Assembly (NCBI GenBank): GCA_031417875.1
Contig: JANOWM010000056.1
Span: 1 to 28,146, forward strand
Source: Candidatus Altimarinota bacterium
GTDB lineage: Bacteria > Patescibacteriota > Gracilibacteria > BD1-5 > UBA2023
Length of the DNA stretch: 28,146 nt
Reading direction: 5' to 3'
Made by a program: the position numbers and the translations under genes. The notes beneath the pieces were generated by a model that was not told where the DNA came from, did no database searches, and saw only the letters and a list, made by a program, of their open reading frames with translations. Each line of letters starts with the position of its first letter. The first letter of the stretch is position 1. Shown here in pieces: positions 3,311-19,545 of this stretch.

Positions 3311-3964
3311 TTATTTATATTTTTCACACCCTACCATTTCAGGCATCATTTTACAGTGTTCACGCATTGCGTCATTATTATTTGATGATGGTGCCATCAT
3401 TTCAGAAGACATAATAGCGTTTTCATTCATTGGCATATTGCCCATATTCATTGTCGACATAGGATATATGAGCATATATCCTACCATGATAACCATGACG
3501 AGATTTTCTGTAATAGTCACTTTTGTCATCGGGAGTTTCCATTTTGTTCCCATGCAAGCACAAGCAATATTTTCCCCTGACTTCACTACTGAGTAGGCAC
3601 TTATCATGCCAAGTAGAGATATAACGAGAGCCACGAGGTTGGTTTCTGTCATAAAAACCATACTTGTATTAAAAATATAGATAAGTCCCAGCACAATCTC
3701 GATACATGGAAATACATATCCCCATGATTTCCATCTTTTTGCTATGAGATCATATTGGGAAAATGATGTTACGAAACCATGAAGATCATAAAATTTCAAA
3801 AGTCCGAATGCAAGAAACCATACGCCCATCAGGTACATCATGAAGGTATTATTCGGGGAAAGATAGGTCAAAATCAGACTCACTCCTACTATACCTCCGA
3901 GGAGCATATAGAGGGGTGTGAGTGAATTTTTCTTCTCGATGTGACAACATTCTTTTCGATTCAT
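3311..3964 (-). CDS. MauE/DoxX-family membrane protein with Met/Cys/His-rich tail
   Basis: Five hydrophobic segments, FGLLKFYDLHGFVTSFSQYDLIAKR and CACMGTKWKLPMTKVTITEN motifs; C-terminus MREHCKMMPEMVGCEKYK. Confidence 0.8.
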   Translation of the reverse strand: MNRKECCHIEKKNSLTPLYMLLGGIVGVSLILTYLSPNNTFMMYLMGVWFLAFGLLKFYDLHGFVTSFSQYDLIAKRWKSWGYVFPCIEIVLGLIYIFNTSMVFMTETNLVALVISLLGMISAYSVVKSGENIACACMGTKWKLPMTKVTITENLVMVIMVGYMLIYPMSTMNMGNMPMNENAIMSSEMMAPSSNNNDAMREHCKMMPEMVGCEKYK

Positions 3965-3982: not shown

Positions 3983-4630
3983 TTAGTGATTACCAAGAAG
4001 TTTCTTAAATGTCGCAATTTCAGCATTTTGTGACCTGATAATATCATTTGCCATCTTCACGATCTCAGGTCGCTGAGATACTTCGAGGACTTCTGTTGCC
4101 ATGTGCACGGCTCACTCATGATGCTTGATCATATCTTCCATAAATGCATCATCGAGATCATGGCTTGAGAACTTTGAAAGATTTCTCATCATCGCCATAT
4201 AGCTTACTTTGAGGGTACTATTTGGATACCATGACTTCATCCATGATCCGAGAAGAGCAATCTCTGTTTTCTGTGCTGAGACGATGTTTTCGGCAATTTT
4301 CTTCAGTTCTGCATTTTCTGTTTTTGCGATGATGATGCTCGCAGTATCGACGGCTTCCTGATGATGTGGTATCATATTAGCGATGAATTCTTCTTCAGTC
4401 GATGCTCACATATGATCCATAGTTTGACCAGTTGCCATATTCATAGATCCATTTCACATATCCATCTGAGAGTGATCCATCCCTGACATAGAGTTATCCA
4501 TGGATGTGGAAGGAGTAGGAGCTACAGAAACAGGAGTGGTAGGTGTTTGTGTAGTGGGAGTTGTATCACTACAGCTTACGAGTGCGAGAGTCGAGAGGAC
4601 CATAAGTCCAAAGATAATAGGTGTTTTCAT
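3983..4630 (-). CDS. DUF305 (CopM-like) metal-binding lipoprotein, 215 aa
   Basis: Signal with lipobox LALVSC, Met/His-rich linker, and two repeats of the ferritin-like motif (FIANMIPHHQEAV; FMEDMIKHHEGAV). Confidence 0.88.
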
Positions 4631-4706: not shown

Positions 4707-7700
4707 TTATTCGACAATAAACTGATTTTTCTGAGTCTTCTCTCGAAATCCGTCAGAGTAATATCGGTAAAATATGCCTGGTCGAAGTGCGAGCTCTATG
4801 AGTGTCGAGACAAAGAGTCACCAGAAGATCACTGTTGCAATCGGTGAGAGCATTTCTTTTCCTGCATCTCCTGCTCCGAGAACCAGAGGAAGCAGTCCGA
4901 GAATGGCAGAAAGTGCTGTCATCGATACAGGAACAATGCGTTCGAGAGATCACTGGATAATCGTCTCACGATCAAAGGGTTTTCATTCTTCCACACAGAG
5001 ATGTTTATAATGGTCTATGAGCATGATGCCGTTGCGTGAAACGATACCCATGAGAGCAATAAACCCAACCAGATGAGCCGTCGATATGACTCAGCCTGTG
5101 AGCCAGACTCAGAGGATGCCTCAGAACCATCCTGTGACAATACCGAGGAAAATCTGAAGAACTAAAACAACACTTTCAAAGTGCCAATAGAGAATACCAA
5201 AAAGCGTAATAAGTACTCCAATAGATATAAACATAAGCAGTCTGGATGACTCTTTCTGAGCTGAGTAGAGCCCTTCATAGGAAACTCTATATCCTATAGG
5301 GATAGTGATCTTCGATACTTCAGTTTGTATATCATATACGACATCGACGATGGAACGATCTTTGGTATATCCTGATATGACGATGCGTCTCTCTGAATTT
5401 TCATGGTTGATGATATTTCGAGATTTTGAGAGTTCAACACTGGCAACATTCCCGACAAAGAGTGTGCGTTCATCAGAAACCCAAAATGGAATACTACGAA
5501 TTGCTTCGGGCGTACTTGTCCATAAGGTAGGAAATCTCATAACAACAGGATATGAATTTTGTCCTTCTATGACTCGTGCCACCTCTTGTCCACCGATACC
5601 AACATCGAGGAGTTCTTTGACTTCATTATAGTTTACTTTCTGTGAAACAAGAGAAGGAGTATTTGGAGTGACGCTGATACTCGGGATTTTTGTCTGTGGT
5701 TCGAGAGATATATTGAGTGTTCCTTCCACTCCACCCGCGATTTCGACTACTTGTCGTCCCAGTGTTTCGAGCGTATCGAGATCTTCTCCAAATATCTTGA
5801 TTACGAGAGGGGCTCGGATACCTGAGATGATCTCCTCTACTCTATGAGTAATAGGTTGTCCGATACCCATGACCGCTACTTGTTTATACTCTCATATTAC
5901 GATATTGATCGCATCATAGATTTTTTCTTTTTCAGTTTTCGTTACATCGGGTGAGAGTGCCACTTCGATTTCTGCATTATTGGATCATTGGGCATGTGCA
6001 TCAGCATCAGCACGCCCGAGTATTACTCCTGCTCTTTCGACTCAAGGGATTTTTCAGAGTTCGAGAGAAAATTTTCTCGTGATGTCGAGCGTGTATTCGA
6101 GAGAACTTCCGGGCTTGGTCGTGATCGAGATAGTATAACTGGGCTCGTTAAATGATGGAAGTCCTTCCTGTCCAGCACTCATATATCCTATGATAGTCAG
6201 TGGTATAGAGAGAAGGGCGAAAAGAAGGGCTTTTTGAGGATTTTTCAGACTCCAAAATATTGGTTTTTTTGCCCAGTGTTTGAGTTTTTCTGTAAACCAG
6301 GTATCCTCAGAGATCTTCCCGCGTTGTTTCTCGATCCAAGAAGGAAGGAGATAGCTACAAATCACAGGAACAAATGTCACAGCAACCAGGAGTGACATGA
6401 TCATCGAAGTGATATAAGCAATACCAATTGGTGCAAGGATTTTTCCATCGACACCAGGCAAGAGAAGAAATGGAACAAATACTATAAGTTGAAGGATAGT
6501 CGCATATACTACACTTCCTCGTACTTCTTTTGAGGCTTCGAATATCACTTTGAGCGGATGAATATGTTCTTCTTTCGGAAGAAGGGCATTCAGACGAAGT
6601 CGCCTGAATATATTTTCCATATCCACTATTGCATCATCTACGAGTTCACCGATAGCAATAGTGAGCCCTCCGAGAACCATGATATTGATACCGATACCAA
6701 AAATATAAAATACAATAGCTGAGAGAAGGAGCGTGATCGGAAGAGAAATCATCGTAATAAATGCGGTACGAGCATTCATAAGAAAAAGAACGACGATAAT
6801 AGCGACGATAATAGCAGCATCTCTGAGTGCTTCTTTGACATTGGTCAATCACTTCTCGATAAACCATGTTTGACGAAGTATATCATCTTTGAGCTCTATT
6901 CCCTTAGGAAGTGTTTTCTGTATTTCTACTACTTTTTCGAGAAGAGTATTCGTGAGTTCTACGGTATTGGCATTTGGAACTTTGGAAACGCGGATAATCA
7001 CTCATTCTCATCCATCGATAAGGGCATCTCATCGTCTTTGGCTATTCTTCCCGACTTCTATACTCGCTATATCCCTCAAGATATTTCAATTTGGGAGAGA
7101 GATAGATCCTATCTTCTCTTCTGTATTTTGTATCGGGTTGAGCTTGATAGGATATTCTGACTTCTTGTCTATGGCGATACCTGCTCCCCCTGGATTGGTT
7201 ATCTCGGCGAGAGAACTTGTGAGATCTTCGAGGGTGATATGTTTTTGTGCGAGTTTTGCTGGATCGACGGAGATAGTATACTGAGGTGCTGATCCTCCCA
7301 TGATGAGAAGATTGGAAATCCCTGATACCGTCGAGAGGGATTGTCTGAGCTCTGTCTCCGCATAGAGACGAAGATCCGATTGATCCACGCTTGGGTCCGT
7401 CGAAGTGAGTCCGAGCCAGAGGACTTCTCCCATTAGTGCTGACTCAGGTGCGACAGTGAGATGCACTCCCTCGGGGAGAGTCACGGACTGGATTTTCTCA
7501 TACACTCATTGACGATTGATATTGACGGTACTTCCCCAATCGAATTCTACATTCACGACTGAGAGTCATCCTGCTGAGCTCGACCTCACTGCATCTACTC
7601 ATGGTATCGTTCTGAGTGTTCGTTCGAGCGGGAGAGTGACGATTTTCTCGACATCCTCAGAACTCATTCATTCGGCTTCAGCGAATACGGTGACACGAGG

Positions 7701-7832
7701 GCGATTGAGGTCTGGAAGGACATCGACAGGGAGATGAGCAAGGCTATAAAACCCAAAAAGTGTAACAATAAGATAGAGACAGAGAACCAGAGGTCGTCTA
7801 TTGAGGGCAAATTTTATAAGAGTATTGAGCAT
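4707..7832 (-). CDS. CusA/CzcA-family heavy-metal efflux RND permease, 1041 aa
   Basis: Single code-25 frame: [70 protein letters not shown]. Confidence 0.93.
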
Positions 7833-7837
7833 GATGA

Positions 7838-9781
7838 TTACGGATTAGTGGATAAAATCGCACTTACATCCATATCGTCTTTCCATTTCGGATTTGAAGT
7901 ATCTGTGACTATCTGTATATCTCCCTTGAGTCACTCTGTAACGATATATTTTTCTCCGATGATTTCATAGGAGATTTTCCACTTTTTCAATGTCTTATTG
8001 GTGAGGACTTTGTATACATATGCTTCGTCTCACTCTTCGTGGATACTCGTCTTTGGGATTTCGATATATCCTGTTCCTGTGAGTCCTGATTTTACGATAC
8101 GAACTTGTGTACCGACAGGAAGGTGCGATGTATCGATAGAGGCTTCGACAGAGATAGTTTGAGTATCTTTGTTCACTGATGATGAATAACGCGTAATCTC
8201 TGCTTGTGTGCTATCAGCGTCAAAACCTGGGAGACTGACTTGGATATTTTGTCCTTTCTTTATGGAACTATACTCAGCTACGGGAACTTCGAACCTGACG
8301 AAGAGATCGAGATCATCACTTTTTCCTGCTATATCAAAAAGTGGAGTTGTCACATCAACTGTCTGCCCAATACTGACATTTTTTCGTGAAATAACACCGT
8401 CAAAAGGAGCAATAGCATAACTTACTTTCATAGTACTCTGTATCGCTCATAGAGCATTTTGGAAGGCTTTGACACGATTTTCTGATCCGATTTGTTCTGC
8501 TTTTGCTTCTATTTTGAGTTTTTCGAGGTCAACACTTGAGAGAGATTGTTCTCCGCTGAGTGTTGCATAGTCTTTCTTCTTATTGGCTTCGAGGAGATCT
8601 CGTTCTGATTCGAGAAGCTTCATTTCTTGCTGGAGTCCTATGAGATCAGCATTTGCCTGAGAGAGTGTTCATGAAGCGGTTGCATTGGCACTCTGAGTTC
8701 ACTTTTCTATCTCGATGAGTCGAGACTGAAGTATGATGATACCATTATCTCCTGATAGAAGTGACAAGAGTTCTTGTTTGTTACCCGTATAATTTGTTAC
8801 CGATGCAGGTCAGATAATCGCATAGATAGTATTTGCATCATTGATGAGTGTTTCGAGCGTACTGAGAGTTTTATTGAGATCTACTGTCGATGATTCTGTC
8901 GAGAGTGGATAGGTCGAGAGGATTGCCCTCATATTTCCATGAAACCTCTCTGGTATATCCAATATCTTTTGTCGATCAGTAGCTCCCAGAGATCCCCAAT
9001 TGGTATTATACCCCCAATACAATGGATACGAAGTAGTGTTGACGGCGAGGTTATTCCTATCACCGTTATAGAAAATAGTGAGGAGTTCGTTTATTGCCTC
9101 ATTTGTCTTCCCGATCAGGTATTTTTTGGCAGTGTCTTGCTTTTGAGTATTTTCTGCGATGGTAGCACTGCTTGATTGCCGACTACTCTCGATGACCACT
9201 CATCTGGCTTCGAGATTTGCTCGAAGACTGGTGATCTTTGCATCGAGTTGTTTTTTCTGCACTTCGTACTGTATATCCAGTGCTTTTCTCTGGACATCAT
9301 ACGCCCGACTAAAAGAGCTCTCTGGGCTCGCAACTACATTGGTAATATATGCCAATTTCTCTTTTGCACTCTGGAGCTCTCATTGTGCGATGGCGATCTC
9401 TGCTTTTTGTCATGCGACCATACTGACCATTTCTGGAGTATTGGTAGGGGCGTTTATGAGAGCAACACGCTGTCATTTTTTCACGGTATCACCGAGACTA
9501 ACGAGGAGTTCTCATATGATACCCTGACGCTCGGGGAATATAGATCCATAATTATCTGAGAGGACTGTTCATGGATAAGTAGGAACGGAAAGGTTATTGG
9601 CATCAGTGACTTGCAGTGTAGTGAATATTGCCCCTGTAGAAACATCTATAGAAATACGTCACCCGAGGTTCTCTGCCTCTTCATCACCATGTCCACCATG
9701 TGCCCATATGAGAGTATATCATCCCACGATGGAAGCGAGCACTCATGTCAGAGCGAAATAAAAAATATTATTTTTTTGCAT
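7838..9781 (-). CDS. RND periplasmic adaptor (MFP), unusually long (647 aa)
   Basis: N-terminal TM then AHGGHGDEE; lipoyl halves (GIIGELLVSLGDTVKKGQ; IAPFDGVISRKNVSIGQTV); long helical insert; beta-barrel C-terminus. Confidence 0.87.
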
Positions 9782-9840
9782 ATAAAAAGATCTAAGAAAT
9801 ATAAAATACTCACACACGGTGAGTGAAAAGATATGATTTC

Positions 9841-10233
9841 TTAGATGAGTATTTTTTTCTCTCCTACAAGCAAATGTCAGAAAAAGTTATTTTCACTTCA
9901 GGGATAGTGCTGAAAATAAGTATCCTGCGTCAGCAGATATGATGAATCATCATACTCACTATACACTGAAATTGACCTCAGAGAAAGATGTGGTAGCTCG
10001 ATATTATCACGAACCTGCTGAGCGATAGTTGTGTCTATTTGAGTCTTGGTACAATGAGGTGGTTCTCTATTGTCCGCTGTCTCTATGATATGTGATTCTG
10101 TGATACCATCATGAGAATGAGATATGATTTCTGTATGAGGCGTACTTCAGGCATGCACAATAGCCATATTTCCAAAAAGAAATACGGCAAAGATTATGAT
10201 GACACTGATGAATTTCTGGTAGAGAAAAAACAT
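9841..10233 (-). CDS. Small His-rich exported protein (130 aa), missed by the ORF track
   Basis: MFFLYQKFISVIIIFAVFLFGNMAIVHAGSTPHTEIISHSHDGITESH...LLVGEKKILI; needs TGA = Gly. Confidence 0.7.
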
Positions 10234-10272: not shown

Positions 10273-10545
10273 TTATTTGCGAGTGGCAACATCCCAAGTA
10301 CGAACCAGTTCTTCGATAAAGTCTTTCTTTTCTTTTCCTTGTCCTGCAAGGGCTTTTGTACCACAACAAGCAAGATGATTTTTGAGAAGTTCACGATTTG
10401 CACTCTGCAATAGTCCCATAGACGCATTGATCTGATGGGCAACATCGGCACAGTACACATCATCATCGATCATTTTTTGAACCTTGGCAAGTGTTCCCAT
10501 TGCCTTCTTTATATTGAGTTGTATTTTTTCTTTTGAAATGATCAT
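10273..10545 (-). CDS. csoR: CsoR/RcnR-family metal-sensing repressor
   Basis: 90 aa, GTLAKVQKMIDDDVYCADVAHQINA...LLKNHLACC: Cys in YC, His-x3-Cys pattern of CsoR ligands. Confidence 0.9.
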   Translation of the reverse strand: MIISKEKIQLNIKKAMGTLAKVQKMIDDDVYCADVAHQINASMGLLQSANRELLKNHLACCGTKALAGQGKEKKDFIEELVRTWDVATRK

Positions 10546-10612
10546 AATGAAAGATTATATTGAAAAACCCTATGATTTCGATATACTCCGATTACTTTTT
10601 AGCGAAAGTACC

Positions 10613-10629
10613 TCCCGCATCCGCGGGAT
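10613..10629. terminator. GC-rich hairpin between the metallothionein-like ORF and csoR (attenuator or stabiliser; also a dispersed repeat)
   Basis: tcccgc-atcc-gcggga. Confidence 0.45.
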
Positions 10630-10641
10630 TTTATGTGCAAT

Positions 10642-10719
10642 TTAGTTGCAACATGTTCCATCACCGCAAGAACAAGTCTTGCAAGTACATGGATTACATG
10701 TGCATTTTTTCGTATTCAT
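10642..10719 (-). CDS. Metallothionein-like micro-protein (25 aa, 8 Cys)
   Basis: ATG10719..TAA10642 = MNTKKCTCNPCTCKTCSCGDGTCCN; three CxC plus one CC; first ORF after the CsoR-type operator. Confidence 0.8.
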   Translation of the reverse strand: MNTKKCTCNPCTCKTCSCGDGTCCN

Positions 10720-10738
10720 AAAAGTATTGTTATGAGTT

Positions 10739-10762
10739 ATACCTAACCATAGGGTATGGTTA
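10739..10762. promoter_or_regulatory. Candidate CsoR operator next to the operon promoter
   Basis: ATACC-N9-GGTAT (10739-10757) overlapping perfect TAACCATA-ggg-TATGGTTA (10744-10762); resembles the ATACC...GGTAT CsoR boxes of Firmicutes. Confidence 0.6.
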
Positions 10763-11423
10763 TAGTATATATAATTTTATGGAAAGCAACTCTTTTATAA
10801 AAAACTTGAAAAATGATGGTTATTCGTATACTGAAAAAAGTATTAATCGTAATTGATTGATGCGTTTATCTCCCACCAATATACATACCAATTGATAGGT
10901 TTTTGAGAAGTATCAGCTGTTTATAGCGAGTATAGCCCTTCACCAGAAGAAGAATACAACCAAAGTAAACGACAGAGCCAGCTCATATACCAATCCTGTC
11001 CTTATCGGATTTTGACACAAAACTTCTTTCTCTGCCATTTCCCTTGCTATGAGAATACGAGTATATAACTCGAAGAAGGTCTAAACAAAGTTACTAACGA
11101 AGGCTGTGGAAAAAGGTGAATCTTTTTTTCTATGCCTTCTTTTTCGTGAAAACGAAAGGAAAAAGATGAAAATTGTGTAACTATACCACCCCAGTGAAGA
11201 AGGAAAAAGTCTATCAAAATGACTCTCTCTTTTACTGAGTCGGATAACTCCCGTAATGAAGAAATCGACAAGATCATCTTGAAGACTATTTTCAAACTAT
11301 AGATACAAAATATATTCATATAACCTTTCAAAATAATCAATTAACTTGCAGTTATTCTCGATTCCCATATAGTGTTATAGCCTAATTATTTCGGTTATGA
11401 TACAATGAGGAAGTTCTCAAAAT

Positions 11424-13085
11424 ATGCGTGTAGCATTCTATATACGTGTTTCTACTGAAGAACAGAAGAAAGACGGATATGGACCAGAAATGCAAATGCA
11501 CGGACTCCAAGAAATGATAACCTATAGGGGAAAAGTATCTGGATGGACCCATAAAAAAGAATGGGAGTATCTGGATCTCGGATGTACAGGAGCAGATCTC
11601 AATCGTCCAGAATACAAAAAAATGATGCAGGATGCAAAAGCCTGAAAATTCGATATGATAGCTGTCTGGAAGATTGATCGTCTCTCTCGTAACCTTTCCC
11701 ACCTTCTCTCTACTTTTGAGATTCTCCAGAATCATAAAGTAGGGTTTTTCTCATTGAAGGAAAATATAGATTTCACCTGACCCATAGGAAAGCTCACCTT
11801 CCAGATATTTTGAACTCTTGCAGAATTCGAACGAGAGATGATAAAAACCAGAACATCTGAAGAGAAGAAACAATCAGCACGACTATGAAATTATGTACTC
11901 AATAAAACTCCATATGGGTATAAAAAAGAGGATGCTGAGAAAAAGCGAAATCGCTCACTCGAAATCATAGATACCGAAGTGCAGTGGGTAAAAAGAATAT
12001 TTGAGGACTTTATCTCTGGAAAGAGTCTTGAGCAGATAGCAAAAATTCTCAATGGAGAAAATGTCCAGAAAAACGATGGAAATCTCAAAAAAGATAAAAA
12101 TACAAAGTGGTATGGATCGACTATACGAGCTATTCTGGAGAATCCAGTATATACAGGACGGGCGGTCGATAACTCGAAAGATGAATCAGGAGAAATAGAA
12201 CAAATAGGGATACCAACGCCTCGACTCATCTCAGATATTACCTATGAACTCGCTCAAAATCGACTCAAATCACTTGATACCGATGCAAAGAGGGGCGGAG
12301 GTGGAAATGAATACCTTTTATCACGAAAAATTGTGGATATGGAAACGGGGAGAAAATTCGTAGGACTTCTTCGTCAAAAAGATAAAAAAGTCAGCTATAG
12401 ACGCAAAAACTTCACTCTTGAAGGGAAAACATATAAAAATATGGAGATACCCTGAGAACCTGTGGAAAAACTTGTTTGGGAGACTATAGCAAAGATGATC
12501 AACCGTCCGAAGGAGCTCTTCGCAATATTTCAGAAACAATCAATCGAGAGTCATGAGTATGATGCTCTTCTCAAAGAAAGAGAAATAAATCAAAGAGAAA
12601 TAGACAAGCTCGAAAGAAAAGAAAGCGAGATAGAGATGGACTACTATGATGGAAAACTCTCCGAAGATAAAAAGGACCGTTTTGTGAAAATCACTATGGA
12701 TCAAAAGAGTTCCTTCGAGAAGAGAAATGAAGAATTGGATAAAAAGATGGATACTCTTATTAAAATGGAAGAAACCAAGATAGCTTTTGAGAAATTCCAA
12801 AGTGATTATGAGATAAATCTGGAAAATCTGACTTTTGAGCAAAAGAAACTCCTCGTTGATCTCCTCGTGGAAAGTATAGAGGTTACAACCGTTGCGTCGC
12901 AAGTGAATCTGAATATCAAGCTACGGTTCAATCAATCAAAGATGACTGAAAGCACACCAGTGGTCGAACCTAAAAAAAGCTCCACAGAGCCACAAAGTGG
13001 GACTGAAGAGCTTAATATTGATAACTATGGTGCAACCGACAGGACTTGAACCTGTGACCTCCTCCTTCGCAGGGAGGCGTTCTAA
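11424..13085 (+). CDS. Large serine recombinase (integrase), 553 aa
   Basis: YIRVST catalytic motif, DLNRPEY, AGKFDMIAVWKIDRLSR, LAEFEREMI, recombinase domain (ILENPVYTG), coiled coil. Code-25 stop TAA 13085 lies inside the antisense tRNA-Arg. Confidence 0.93.
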
Positions 13086-13105
13086 TCCAACTGAACTACG
13101 GCTGC
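13028..13105 (-). tRNA. tRNA-Arg(GCG)
   Basis: GCAGCCG/CGGUUGC acceptor, anticodon arm CCUCC-CUGCGAA-GGAGG, T-arm ACAGG-UUCAAGU-CCUGU, encoded ACCA. Confidence 0.95.
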
Positions 13106-13120
13106 ATGGATTATACTGGA

Positions 13121-13190
13121 CCGAAACTTGAACCTGTGACCTCCTCCTTTCCCGCTTAGCGGGATTCTCATCCAACGAAAGCTACGGCTC
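13121..13190 (-). pseudogene. Degenerate tandem copy of tRNA-Arg
   Basis: Shares acttgaacctgtgacctcctcctt, ttct-atccaac, ctacggct and the flank atggatta..ctgga. One T-stem strand is deleted and the anticodon region is replaced by tcccgc-tta-gcggga. Confidence 0.8.
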
Positions 13191-13219
13191 TCATGGATTA
13201 CTGGAACTCTGGAAAATAC

Positions 13220-13297
13220 TGGAGGCACTAATCGGATTCGAACCGATGACTAGAGAGCTTTGCAGGCCCTTGCAATTGACCACTCTGCCATAGTGCC
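13220..13297 (-). tRNA. tRNA-Cys(GCA)
   Basis: GGCACUA/UAGUGCC acceptor, AGGGC-CUGCAAA-GCUCU anticodon arm, U73, encoded CCA; promoter TTGCTT-15-TATAAT at 13315-13341. Confidence 0.95.
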
Positions 13298-19005: not shown

Positions 19006-19545
19006 CTGTCATTCCTGTCCCGCTTGGCGGGATAATACTCCTGCAGGAATCTTACTTACATTCTTCTGTACTTTTTCACCCTCAAGGGGTGCCTCGTCGA
19101 CAAAAAAGTACCAAAAAGTCTTCAGGGTCTTCCATGCTTCATTTTCTCGTATCTGTTGCCACTTGATTTCCTAAAATTGCAAGACTACCAAACGTTGCAA
19201 TTTTTACGGAAATCTTCATGGACAGATACGGAAAACTCGCATAAGGAAGAAAAAGAAATAAAATAAAAAACAAAGCCAGAGCCAAAAAATCGATGATGAA
19301 CAGTGAAGGGGGGTTCGAAAGTTTGGAGTGTTTGCTTCTTTTTTTGGTGAACTTTCTGATTCTGTCGTCGATGTTTTCGAAAAAATTGCAACGTTTCTGA
19401 ATTTTGCAATTTTAGAAAACAAGACGATTACAGAATCCAAAGTGAACCAATGGAAAGAAGGACCTTTTGGTACTTTTCAGTCATGAAAAGTACAGAGAGA
19501 AAGTTTTGAAAATATGGAGATCCTGAAACAAGTTCAGGGTGACAG
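19006..19545. repeat. ~540-bp fold-back element: two diverged ~200-250-bp units in inverted orientation
   Basis: 19173-19205 vs reverse complement of 19381-19413 match 28/33; matching tctgtactttt..aaaagtaccaaaa blocks at 19065-19120 and 19461-19496; TGTCA-REP termini at both ends. Confidence 0.8.

Follow-up and report, generated by a model that had tools for sequence, protein, structure and literature searches.

Copper metallothioneins of about 25 residues occur in fungi, where the family-8 proteins of Neurospora crassa and Agaricus bisporus contain about 30% Cys, carry CxC pairs, lack aromatic residues and hold their metal in a single small Cu(I)-thiolate cluster. In bacteria, the SmtA/BmtA proteins open at their N-terminus with a CxCxxCxC block, similar to the CTCNPCTC of the peptide described here. 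Bacterial metallothioneins are thought to be rare, with SmtA/BmtA and MymT as the main characterised families (PMC7558416). SmtA/BmtA, about 55 aa long, adopt a zinc-finger fold and bind a Zn4 cluster with the help of His ligands (PMC7558416). MymT is a 4.9-kDa Cu(I) metallothionein that was originally a non-annotated ORF (PMC7558416). Its gene, mymT, is under the repression of RicR, a paralog of CsoR, which acts via a promoter palindrome (PMC3944814), and the RicR regulon includes further copper-response genes (PMC3944814, PMC7558416).

In the window (the whole 28,146-nt stretch of Gracilibacteria DNA analysed here), we detected an ORF of 25 codons on the minus strand (10642-10719, stop included) that encodes MNTKKCTCNPCTCKTCSCGDGTCCN and ends in the stop codon TAA. 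An earlier reading of the DNA without database searches (the sequence-only reading) had pointed to an unannotated 25-aa, 8-Cys ORF at this position, and its translation was reproduced exactly. The ORF is the longest in its own frame. The peptide has a mass of 2.6 kDa, consists of Cys to 32% and is devoid of F, W, Y and H; its Cys residues are laid out as three CxC pairs, with two residues between the pairs, plus a CC. Metallothioneins are proteins of low mass (below about 10 kDa), rich in CxC, CxxC or CC and with few or no aromatic residues; the peptide has this size and this composition, and its Cys pattern is invariant in the relatives.

The composition is exceptional in the genome. Among all 8,783 ATG-initiated ORFs of 15 to 70 codons in the whole 1.0-Mb assembly, translated with code 25, only the peptide ORF combines a Cys content of 20% or more with a minimum of five Cys, and the background Cys content of the long ORFs is 1.6%. 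TGA is a sense codon in this genome, with 15-21 TGA codons inside long frames, and a tRNA with anticodon UCA was found. Shine-Dalgarno sequences precede 10% of the long ORFs against a background of 16.5%, which indicates that none are used, and the lack of a ribosome-binding site at the peptide ORF is therefore no argument against its translation. The preference for T at position -1 that is seen genome-wide is also found at this ORF.

Searches of Pfam, NCBIfam and PDB (the latter with the family profile) gave no match to the peptide even at E 10. The Pfam metallothionein models, including those of the eukaryotic families, left the window peptide unmatched, as did the PF02069 profile (E up to 10) and, by sequence, the SmtA structure entry; the G005 ortholog reached E 0.52 with PF12749, far below the cut-off. 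Ten exact peptide sequences, including longer ones from other phyla, were absent from a collection of 15 billion proteins, and a mixed profile compared with 5.8 billion clusters retrieved a single match, a 39-aa protein of Phenylobacterium. Literature searches returned no report of the 8-Cys peptide. The earlier suggestion of a possibly new family is supported by the lack of matches in the three libraries. By size, Cys pattern and absence of aromatic residues the peptide would be classified as a metallothionein with a predicted metal cluster, lying outside every described family; the profile libraries detected no relationship to MymT.

Of the known families, the fungal family-8 proteins are closest in size and composition, but they are eukaryotic, have another Cys spacing and lack the CxCxPCxC block. 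SmtA/BmtA would resemble the peptide as cytoplasmic bacterial metal sponges under metal-sensor control, whereas their repressors are of the SmtB/ArsR type and the window peptide is half as long and contains no His. CopZ is likewise a small cytoplasmic Cu(I) partner in the CsoR-controlled operons of many Gram-positive bacteria; it is, however, about 70 aa long, folds as a domain with a single CxxC and works alongside a P1B ATPase, while the window peptide contains eight Cys and lacks a fold of this kind. The likeness to MymT and RicR concerns both the product, a small Cys-rich protein, and the gene, which carries a palindrome for a CsoR-family repressor, here the putative operator at 10738-10761. 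It extends to the wider copper response, in that relatives of the window genome likewise join the Cys motif to multicopper oxidases. MymT differs in being about twice the size of the peptide, in its restriction to pathogenic mycobacteria and in that its gene does not lie between the operator and the repressor gene. We consider it likely, with a probability of about 0.7, that the ORF encodes a Cu(I)-thiolate peptide derepressed by CsoR, functionally similar to MymT under RicR and representing a new, smaller family. The interpretation offered by the sequence-only reading is thereby supported, to the extent that sequence data allow.

Loci of relatives were collected by a scan for the Cys pattern followed by a profile search. 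In at least 17 related genomes, belonging to four to five genera, the peptide is flanked by an invariant palindromic operator on one side and by csoR on the other, and an ORF of 25-28 aa is present on the operator side of csoR in all loci examined of the window's genus (eight) and of the g4 genus (four). Across the family, the profile search recovered the peptide in 18 of 89 genomes (one match being marginal), which represent 5 of 24 genera; a sample spanning the class contained it in 9 of 401 genomes. This patchy distribution is as expected for an accessory cassette, and the peptide-csoR cassette appears to move horizontally.

In the locus alignment the 5' leader is variable, and the start codon, the position of the stop and all eight Cys are fixed; the non-Cys residues N-P, S17 and G-x-G are also conserved. 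Across the 12 distinct nucleotide versions, third codon positions vary in nine columns, against five columns for first and three for second positions. TGT/TGC switching occurs at four of the eight Cys codons in these versions and not one Cys is replaced. The pooled pN/pS amounts to 0.30 for the whole peptide and to 0.14 when residues 6-25 are taken by themselves, values that come from 25 codons with little statistical power and from genomes related to one another. Nucleotide conservation alone is no proof of coding, because the non-coding flanks are also highly conserved. An operator-only scan of metagenome contigs served as an anchor that does not presuppose the Cys pattern: each of the four contigs recovered in this way has the ORF some 40 nt downstream of the operator, in every case with its eight Cys complete, and two new variants are among them. 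The Cys codons are thus kept in every syntenic locus, including those found without the Cys pattern, which speaks in favour of the interpretation given in the sequence-only reading. The ORF is most likely a real gene that is conserved as a protein among the relatives, as judged from the substitution pattern.

Two relatives show the peptide without an intact csoR behind it. In G406, which belongs to another family, the copy of the peptide (MKSTNGCNCSPCTCETCSCGTNCAC) has diverged but is again 25 aa long with eight Cys; an unrelated DUF4256 gene follows in place of csoR, and no transporter is nearby. A WACCCTA-N3-TAGGGWT palindrome is found in G406 both at the peptide promoter and at the only csoR of the genome, on a different contig. 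In G007, the csoR behind the peptide has decayed to a remnant of 21 codons, and the peptide and the operator are intact. These two loci speak against the view that the peptide is no more than a leader for csoR. The G007 cassette (L026:5048-8000) is also rearranged, with a csoR-like gene and a His-rich CDF transporter upstream of the peptide and, after the csoR remnant, genes for a small membrane protein and for another CDF transporter.

Upstream of the ORF, the alignment allowed us to assign a putative promoter P1 (10762-10789, minus strand) with a -35 element TTGCTT (10784-10789), a 16-nt spacer and a -10 element TACTAT (10762-10767). The TTG of the -35 element is conserved in the eight aligned loci, and the -10 element mostly reads TATAGT or a close variant among the relatives. 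Directly after the -10 element follows the CsoR-type operator AACCATACCCTATGGTTAGGTATA (10738-10761, minus strand), in which a 7-3-7 palindrome overlaps ATACC-N9-GGTAT. Its first 17 nt (AACCATA-CCC-TATGGTT) form a perfect 7-3-7 palindrome, and 23 nt of the operator are invariant across the eight loci. The operator that the sequence-only reading had placed ahead of the peptide is thus present, and we infer from its position and palindromy that CsoR binds it. A genome-wide search found the operator in two copies only, one at the peptide locus and one at a second csoR gene (csoR2) on contig C33. The copy directly before csoR2 fits an operator for CsoR autoregulation. At csoR2 (C33:10607-10925 in the window genome) the same promoter and operator are present with no peptide between, and DUF6962 and DUF305 genes lie downstream. 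A third csoR-family gene was detected on contig C40.

The gene after the peptide, which had been named csoR in the sequence-only reading, was confirmed as such (10273-10545, minus strand; 90 aa; PF02583, E 1.5e-16). Its best PDB match is the CsoR of M. tuberculosis (2hh7), and C32, H57 and C61 align to the Cu(I) ligands C36, H61 and C65 of that structure, so that its ligand set is of the Cu type. In the second shell, Y31 and a Glu align to Y35 and E81 of 2hh7. The N-terminal His of the RcnR/InrS-type Ni/Co sensors is absent from the CsoR sequence. The adjacent regulator has the ligand fingerprint of the Cu(I)-sensing CsoR branch of PF02583, to which we assign it on this alignment.

Between the peptide and csoR we detected two hairpins and a promoter-like box on the minus strand. 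Hairpin 1 (10613-10628; UCCCGC-GGAU-GCGGGA) has a GC stem of 6 bp and begins 13 nt after the stop; it corresponds to the GC hairpin noticed previously, and its structure is conserved with compensatory changes. It folds in all relatives, G444 having an unrelated stem of its own at the same place. In 13 distinct sequences, 94.8% of the alignment cells of hairpin 1 are paired, compared with 45-62% when the partners are slid. A compensatory change from G:C to A:U is found at one pair in 3 of the 13 sequences, and the closing pair changes from U:A to A:U in the metagenome contig L177. The possibility that hairpin 1 is a dispersed repeat was tested and rejected. Hairpin 2 (10593-10611; GUACUUU-loop-AAAGUA) is AU-rich and is predicted in four of the five relatives folded, with differing sequences; G444 has a stem of 3 bp only. 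Neither hairpin is a classical terminator, because no U-run follows either of them on the minus strand. The core of hairpin 2 resembles a scattered family of GGTACTTTTT-loop-AAAAAGTACC palindromes with conserved flanks, found at 19470-19493 in the window and at about 11 other loci of the genome.

The promoter-like box P2 (10554-10581, minus strand; TCGAAA-16-TATAAT) matches the consensus at 10 of 12 positions and is conserved across eight loci, and its spacer carries CATAGGGT, likewise conserved, which corresponds to the operator core in reverse complement. Hairpin 2 and P2 are additions to the elements noticed in the sequence-only reading. Given this internal promoter-like box, the peptide may form a nearly autonomous unit and be more than the leading cistron. 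P2 and csoR are separated in G013 by a tRNA-Cys gene. This extra tRNA-Cys(GCA) (L028:15609-15682, minus strand; 74 nt) lies between the peptide and csoR, and the genome has a canonical 78-nt tRNA-Cys elsewhere; the G013 peptide is the most Cys-rich version, with 28 aa and 11 Cys. The cassette tRNA-Cys may be a dedicated Cys-tRNA supply for the peptide, or it may be a hitch-hiker.

The peptide-csoR stretch, ORF included, is matched at 85-100% identity by contigs of relatives from four metatranscriptome runs (three studies), and one RNA-library contig of 84 nt is identical to the window. In the smallest RNA run, word depth peaks over the ORF and is zero upstream of about position 10743. These contigs come from RNA libraries in which DNA carry-over is possible, and they are suggestive only of transcription of the peptide locus.

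Five genes on the minus strand follow csoR. The first encodes a 130-aa protein without family assignment (9841-10233), hydrophobic in an N-terminal segment and containing several His, which is syntenic in the relatives. It is followed by a membrane-fusion (adaptor) protein of 659 aa (7838-9817; HlyD_D23, HlyD_3 and TIGR01730) and a heavy-metal-type RND transporter of 1041 aa (4707-7832; ACR_tran, E 1.4e-214), for which the CusA/CzcA family is the best NCBIfam match. A CopM/DUF305 copper-binding protein (3983-4630; DUF305, E 5e-43; NF049983 CopM above the cut-off) has a lipoprotein-like N-terminus and a Met/His-rich linker. The last gene of the block encodes a MauE/DoxX-like membrane protein (3311-3964; PF07291) that is also syntenic in the relatives. 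The conserved block contains no maturase, radical-SAM, protease or peptide exporter gene.

The downstream pump is thus not a P-type ATPase but an RND transporter with its membrane-fusion protein. The best PDB match of the transporter is CusA, followed by ZneA with nearly as good a score. M573, M623 and M672 of CusA align to S, N and E in the window protein, and a canonical CusA was rejected because this Met triad is absent. Since the RND transporter lacks the CusA Met triad and CDF transporters flank the G007 peptide, the metal of the pump and of the cassette could be broader than copper. TM4 of the RND transporter reads AIG-x3-DDA-x5-EN.

No HMA domain, E1-E2 (P-type) ATPase or CopZ was detected in the 87%-complete assembly; in control genomes, HMA was found in 13 of 14 and E1-E2 ATPases in 14 of 14. 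The idea that the peptide replaces the P-type ATPase throughout the family was not retained: the ATPase is absent from 12 of the 17 peptide-bearing genomes of the family versus 34 of the 72 others, a weak trend only, among genomes that are not independent.

Read together, the elements of the locus suggest the following model. When copper is absent, CsoR would occupy the palindrome that immediately follows the -10 element and block P1. Binding of Cu(I) to C32, H57 and C61 would release CsoR, and the peptide would be made first and in the largest amount. Translation of 10642-10719 would yield a cytoplasmic peptide whose eight thiolates are predicted to gather Cu(I) ions into a small polynuclear cluster of presently hypothetical stoichiometry, making it a minimal metallothionein. 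The two hairpins after the peptide stop may end or stabilise most transcripts, and csoR and the export genes would be served by read-through together with the internal promoter P2. Higher expression of the peptide than of the pump genes is compatible with this presumed division of labour among P1, the hairpins and P2. In a cell whose assembled genome encodes neither CopZ nor a P-type ATPase, the peptide would buffer incoming Cu(I).

The locus can also be read in other ways, chief among them a chaperone role and a different or broader metal. If the peptide passed Cu(I) on, as a chaperone or relay, to the RND system, CsoR or exported copper proteins, it would take the place of CopZ, in agreement with the absence of HMA/CopZ domains from the genome; the use of the Cys motif as a tail of CopM/DUF305 proteins and multicopper oxidases likewise resembles a hand-off or loading module. 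However, eight Cys in 20 residues point to cluster chemistry rather than to a single CxxC, no partner interface is visible and the copy in G406 is isolated, without a transporter in its neighbourhood, and we regard a chaperone role as unlikely, although it is compatible with a copper sink and does not exclude it. That the peptide is a metallothionein devoted to a different thiophilic metal (Zn, Cd, Ag or Hg), or a general thiol or redox buffer, appears quite unlikely. The CsoR has the x-C-H-C ligand set without the N-terminal His of the Ni/Co sensors, CopM in the window and multicopper oxidases in the relatives are copper proteins, and the peptide lacks the His or Asp/Glu ligands of Zn metallothioneins. 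A metal other than copper would agree with the RND transporter, which lacks the Met triad and scores nearly equally with the Zn-exporting ZneA, with the CDF transporters on both sides of the G007 peptide and with the MerR-family regulators adjoining the similar cyanobacterial and Melainabacteria peptides.

The order of a short ORF, two conserved hairpins and regulated genes, together with the extra tRNA-Cys in the G013 cassette, is also what might be seen if the ORF were a regulatory leader (uORF) with a functionless product, the pace of its translation, reduced at Cys codons or by copper, governing hairpin formation and so the expression of csoR and the pump. We consider this highly unlikely, as the non-Cys residues N-P, S17 and G-x-G are conserved, the stop lies 13 nt before hairpin 1 and no alternative pairing with the ORF appears in the folds of the relatives; the G406 copy has neither hairpins nor csoR behind it, the motif recurs as a protein domain, and the internal promoter-like box would bypass a leader. 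Least probable of all, in our estimate, is that the ORF encodes the precursor of a modified or secreted (RiPP-like) peptide or is a remnant of a CopM/DUF305 N-terminus. Cys-rich short precursors do exist elsewhere and the motif is common to the N-termini of longer proteins, but maturation and export genes of the kinds sought are missing from the conserved block, and the preservation of length, stop and all Cys across genera with a low pN/pS is unlike decay.

The Cys motif of the copper-binding candidate is found beyond the cassette. In relatives, CxCxxCxCxPCxC recurs as an N-terminal tail before a membrane helix in CopM/DUF305 proteins (211-234 aa) and in multicopper oxidases (about 600 aa). 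In other phyla, a pattern scan whose matches are mostly GC-rich off-frame noise, and which yields examples rather than frequencies, included among the matches listed unannotated ORFs of 31-57 aa with a CxCxPCxCxxCxCG block (among them L087:6472-6570, L053:1713-1862, L098:5222-5395 and L158:5066-5239, of 32-57 aa, from Melainabacteria, Chamaesiphon and Acidimicrobiales-type MAGs). Among these listed matches, a MerR-family regulator is encoded directly beside the Cys-rich ORF in two cases (Chamaesiphon and a Melainabacteria MAG), a CsoR-family gene in an Acidimicrobiales MAG and an HMA-bearing P-type ATPase beside another ORF; several other candidates among them have no metal-related neighbour. 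These ORFs are too short to tell homology from convergence. We tentatively propose, as a possibility that we hold to be the less probable side of the question, that the block defines a broad and almost entirely unannotated class of bacterial mini-metallothioneins, paired with more than one kind of metal sensor (with CsoR in Gracilibacteria and Acidimicrobiales and with MerR in cyanobacteria and Melainabacteria), reused as the tail of membrane-anchored CopM/DUF305 proteins and multicopper oxidases, and serving as the main cytoplasmic copper defence in reduced Gracilibacteria without CopA/CopZ.

The findings suggest that the rarity of bacterial metallothioneins is partly due to gene callers that skip such short ORFs. 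If the proposed function is correct, the 25-residue peptide with its eight thiolates would be the smallest bacterial metallothionein, and it would show how copper is handled in genome-reduced, recoded bacteria without CopA/CopZ. The peptide is easy to synthesise and could provide a compact model for Cu(I) cluster chemistry, and a Cys-rich micro-ORF beside a metal sensor offers a search pattern for other phyla.

Further observations concern the surroundings of the cassette and the tailed proteins. The flanks upstream of the peptide are different in every relative. The csoR of the window is 93% identical to that of G330, a genome of another genus, versus 64-67% to the copies of its own genus. 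In the window, a serine recombinase gene on the plus strand (11397-13297 region) ends within a tRNA-Arg gene (13028-13105, minus strand), which is adjoined by a tRNA-Cys gene (13220-13297). In the tailed CopM and multicopper oxidase proteins (L025:6110-6787, L029:5546-6229, L030:695-1330, L023:97-1944 and L031:4640-6424), the Cys-rich tail is about 35 aa long and contains more Cys beyond the motif, followed by one membrane helix.
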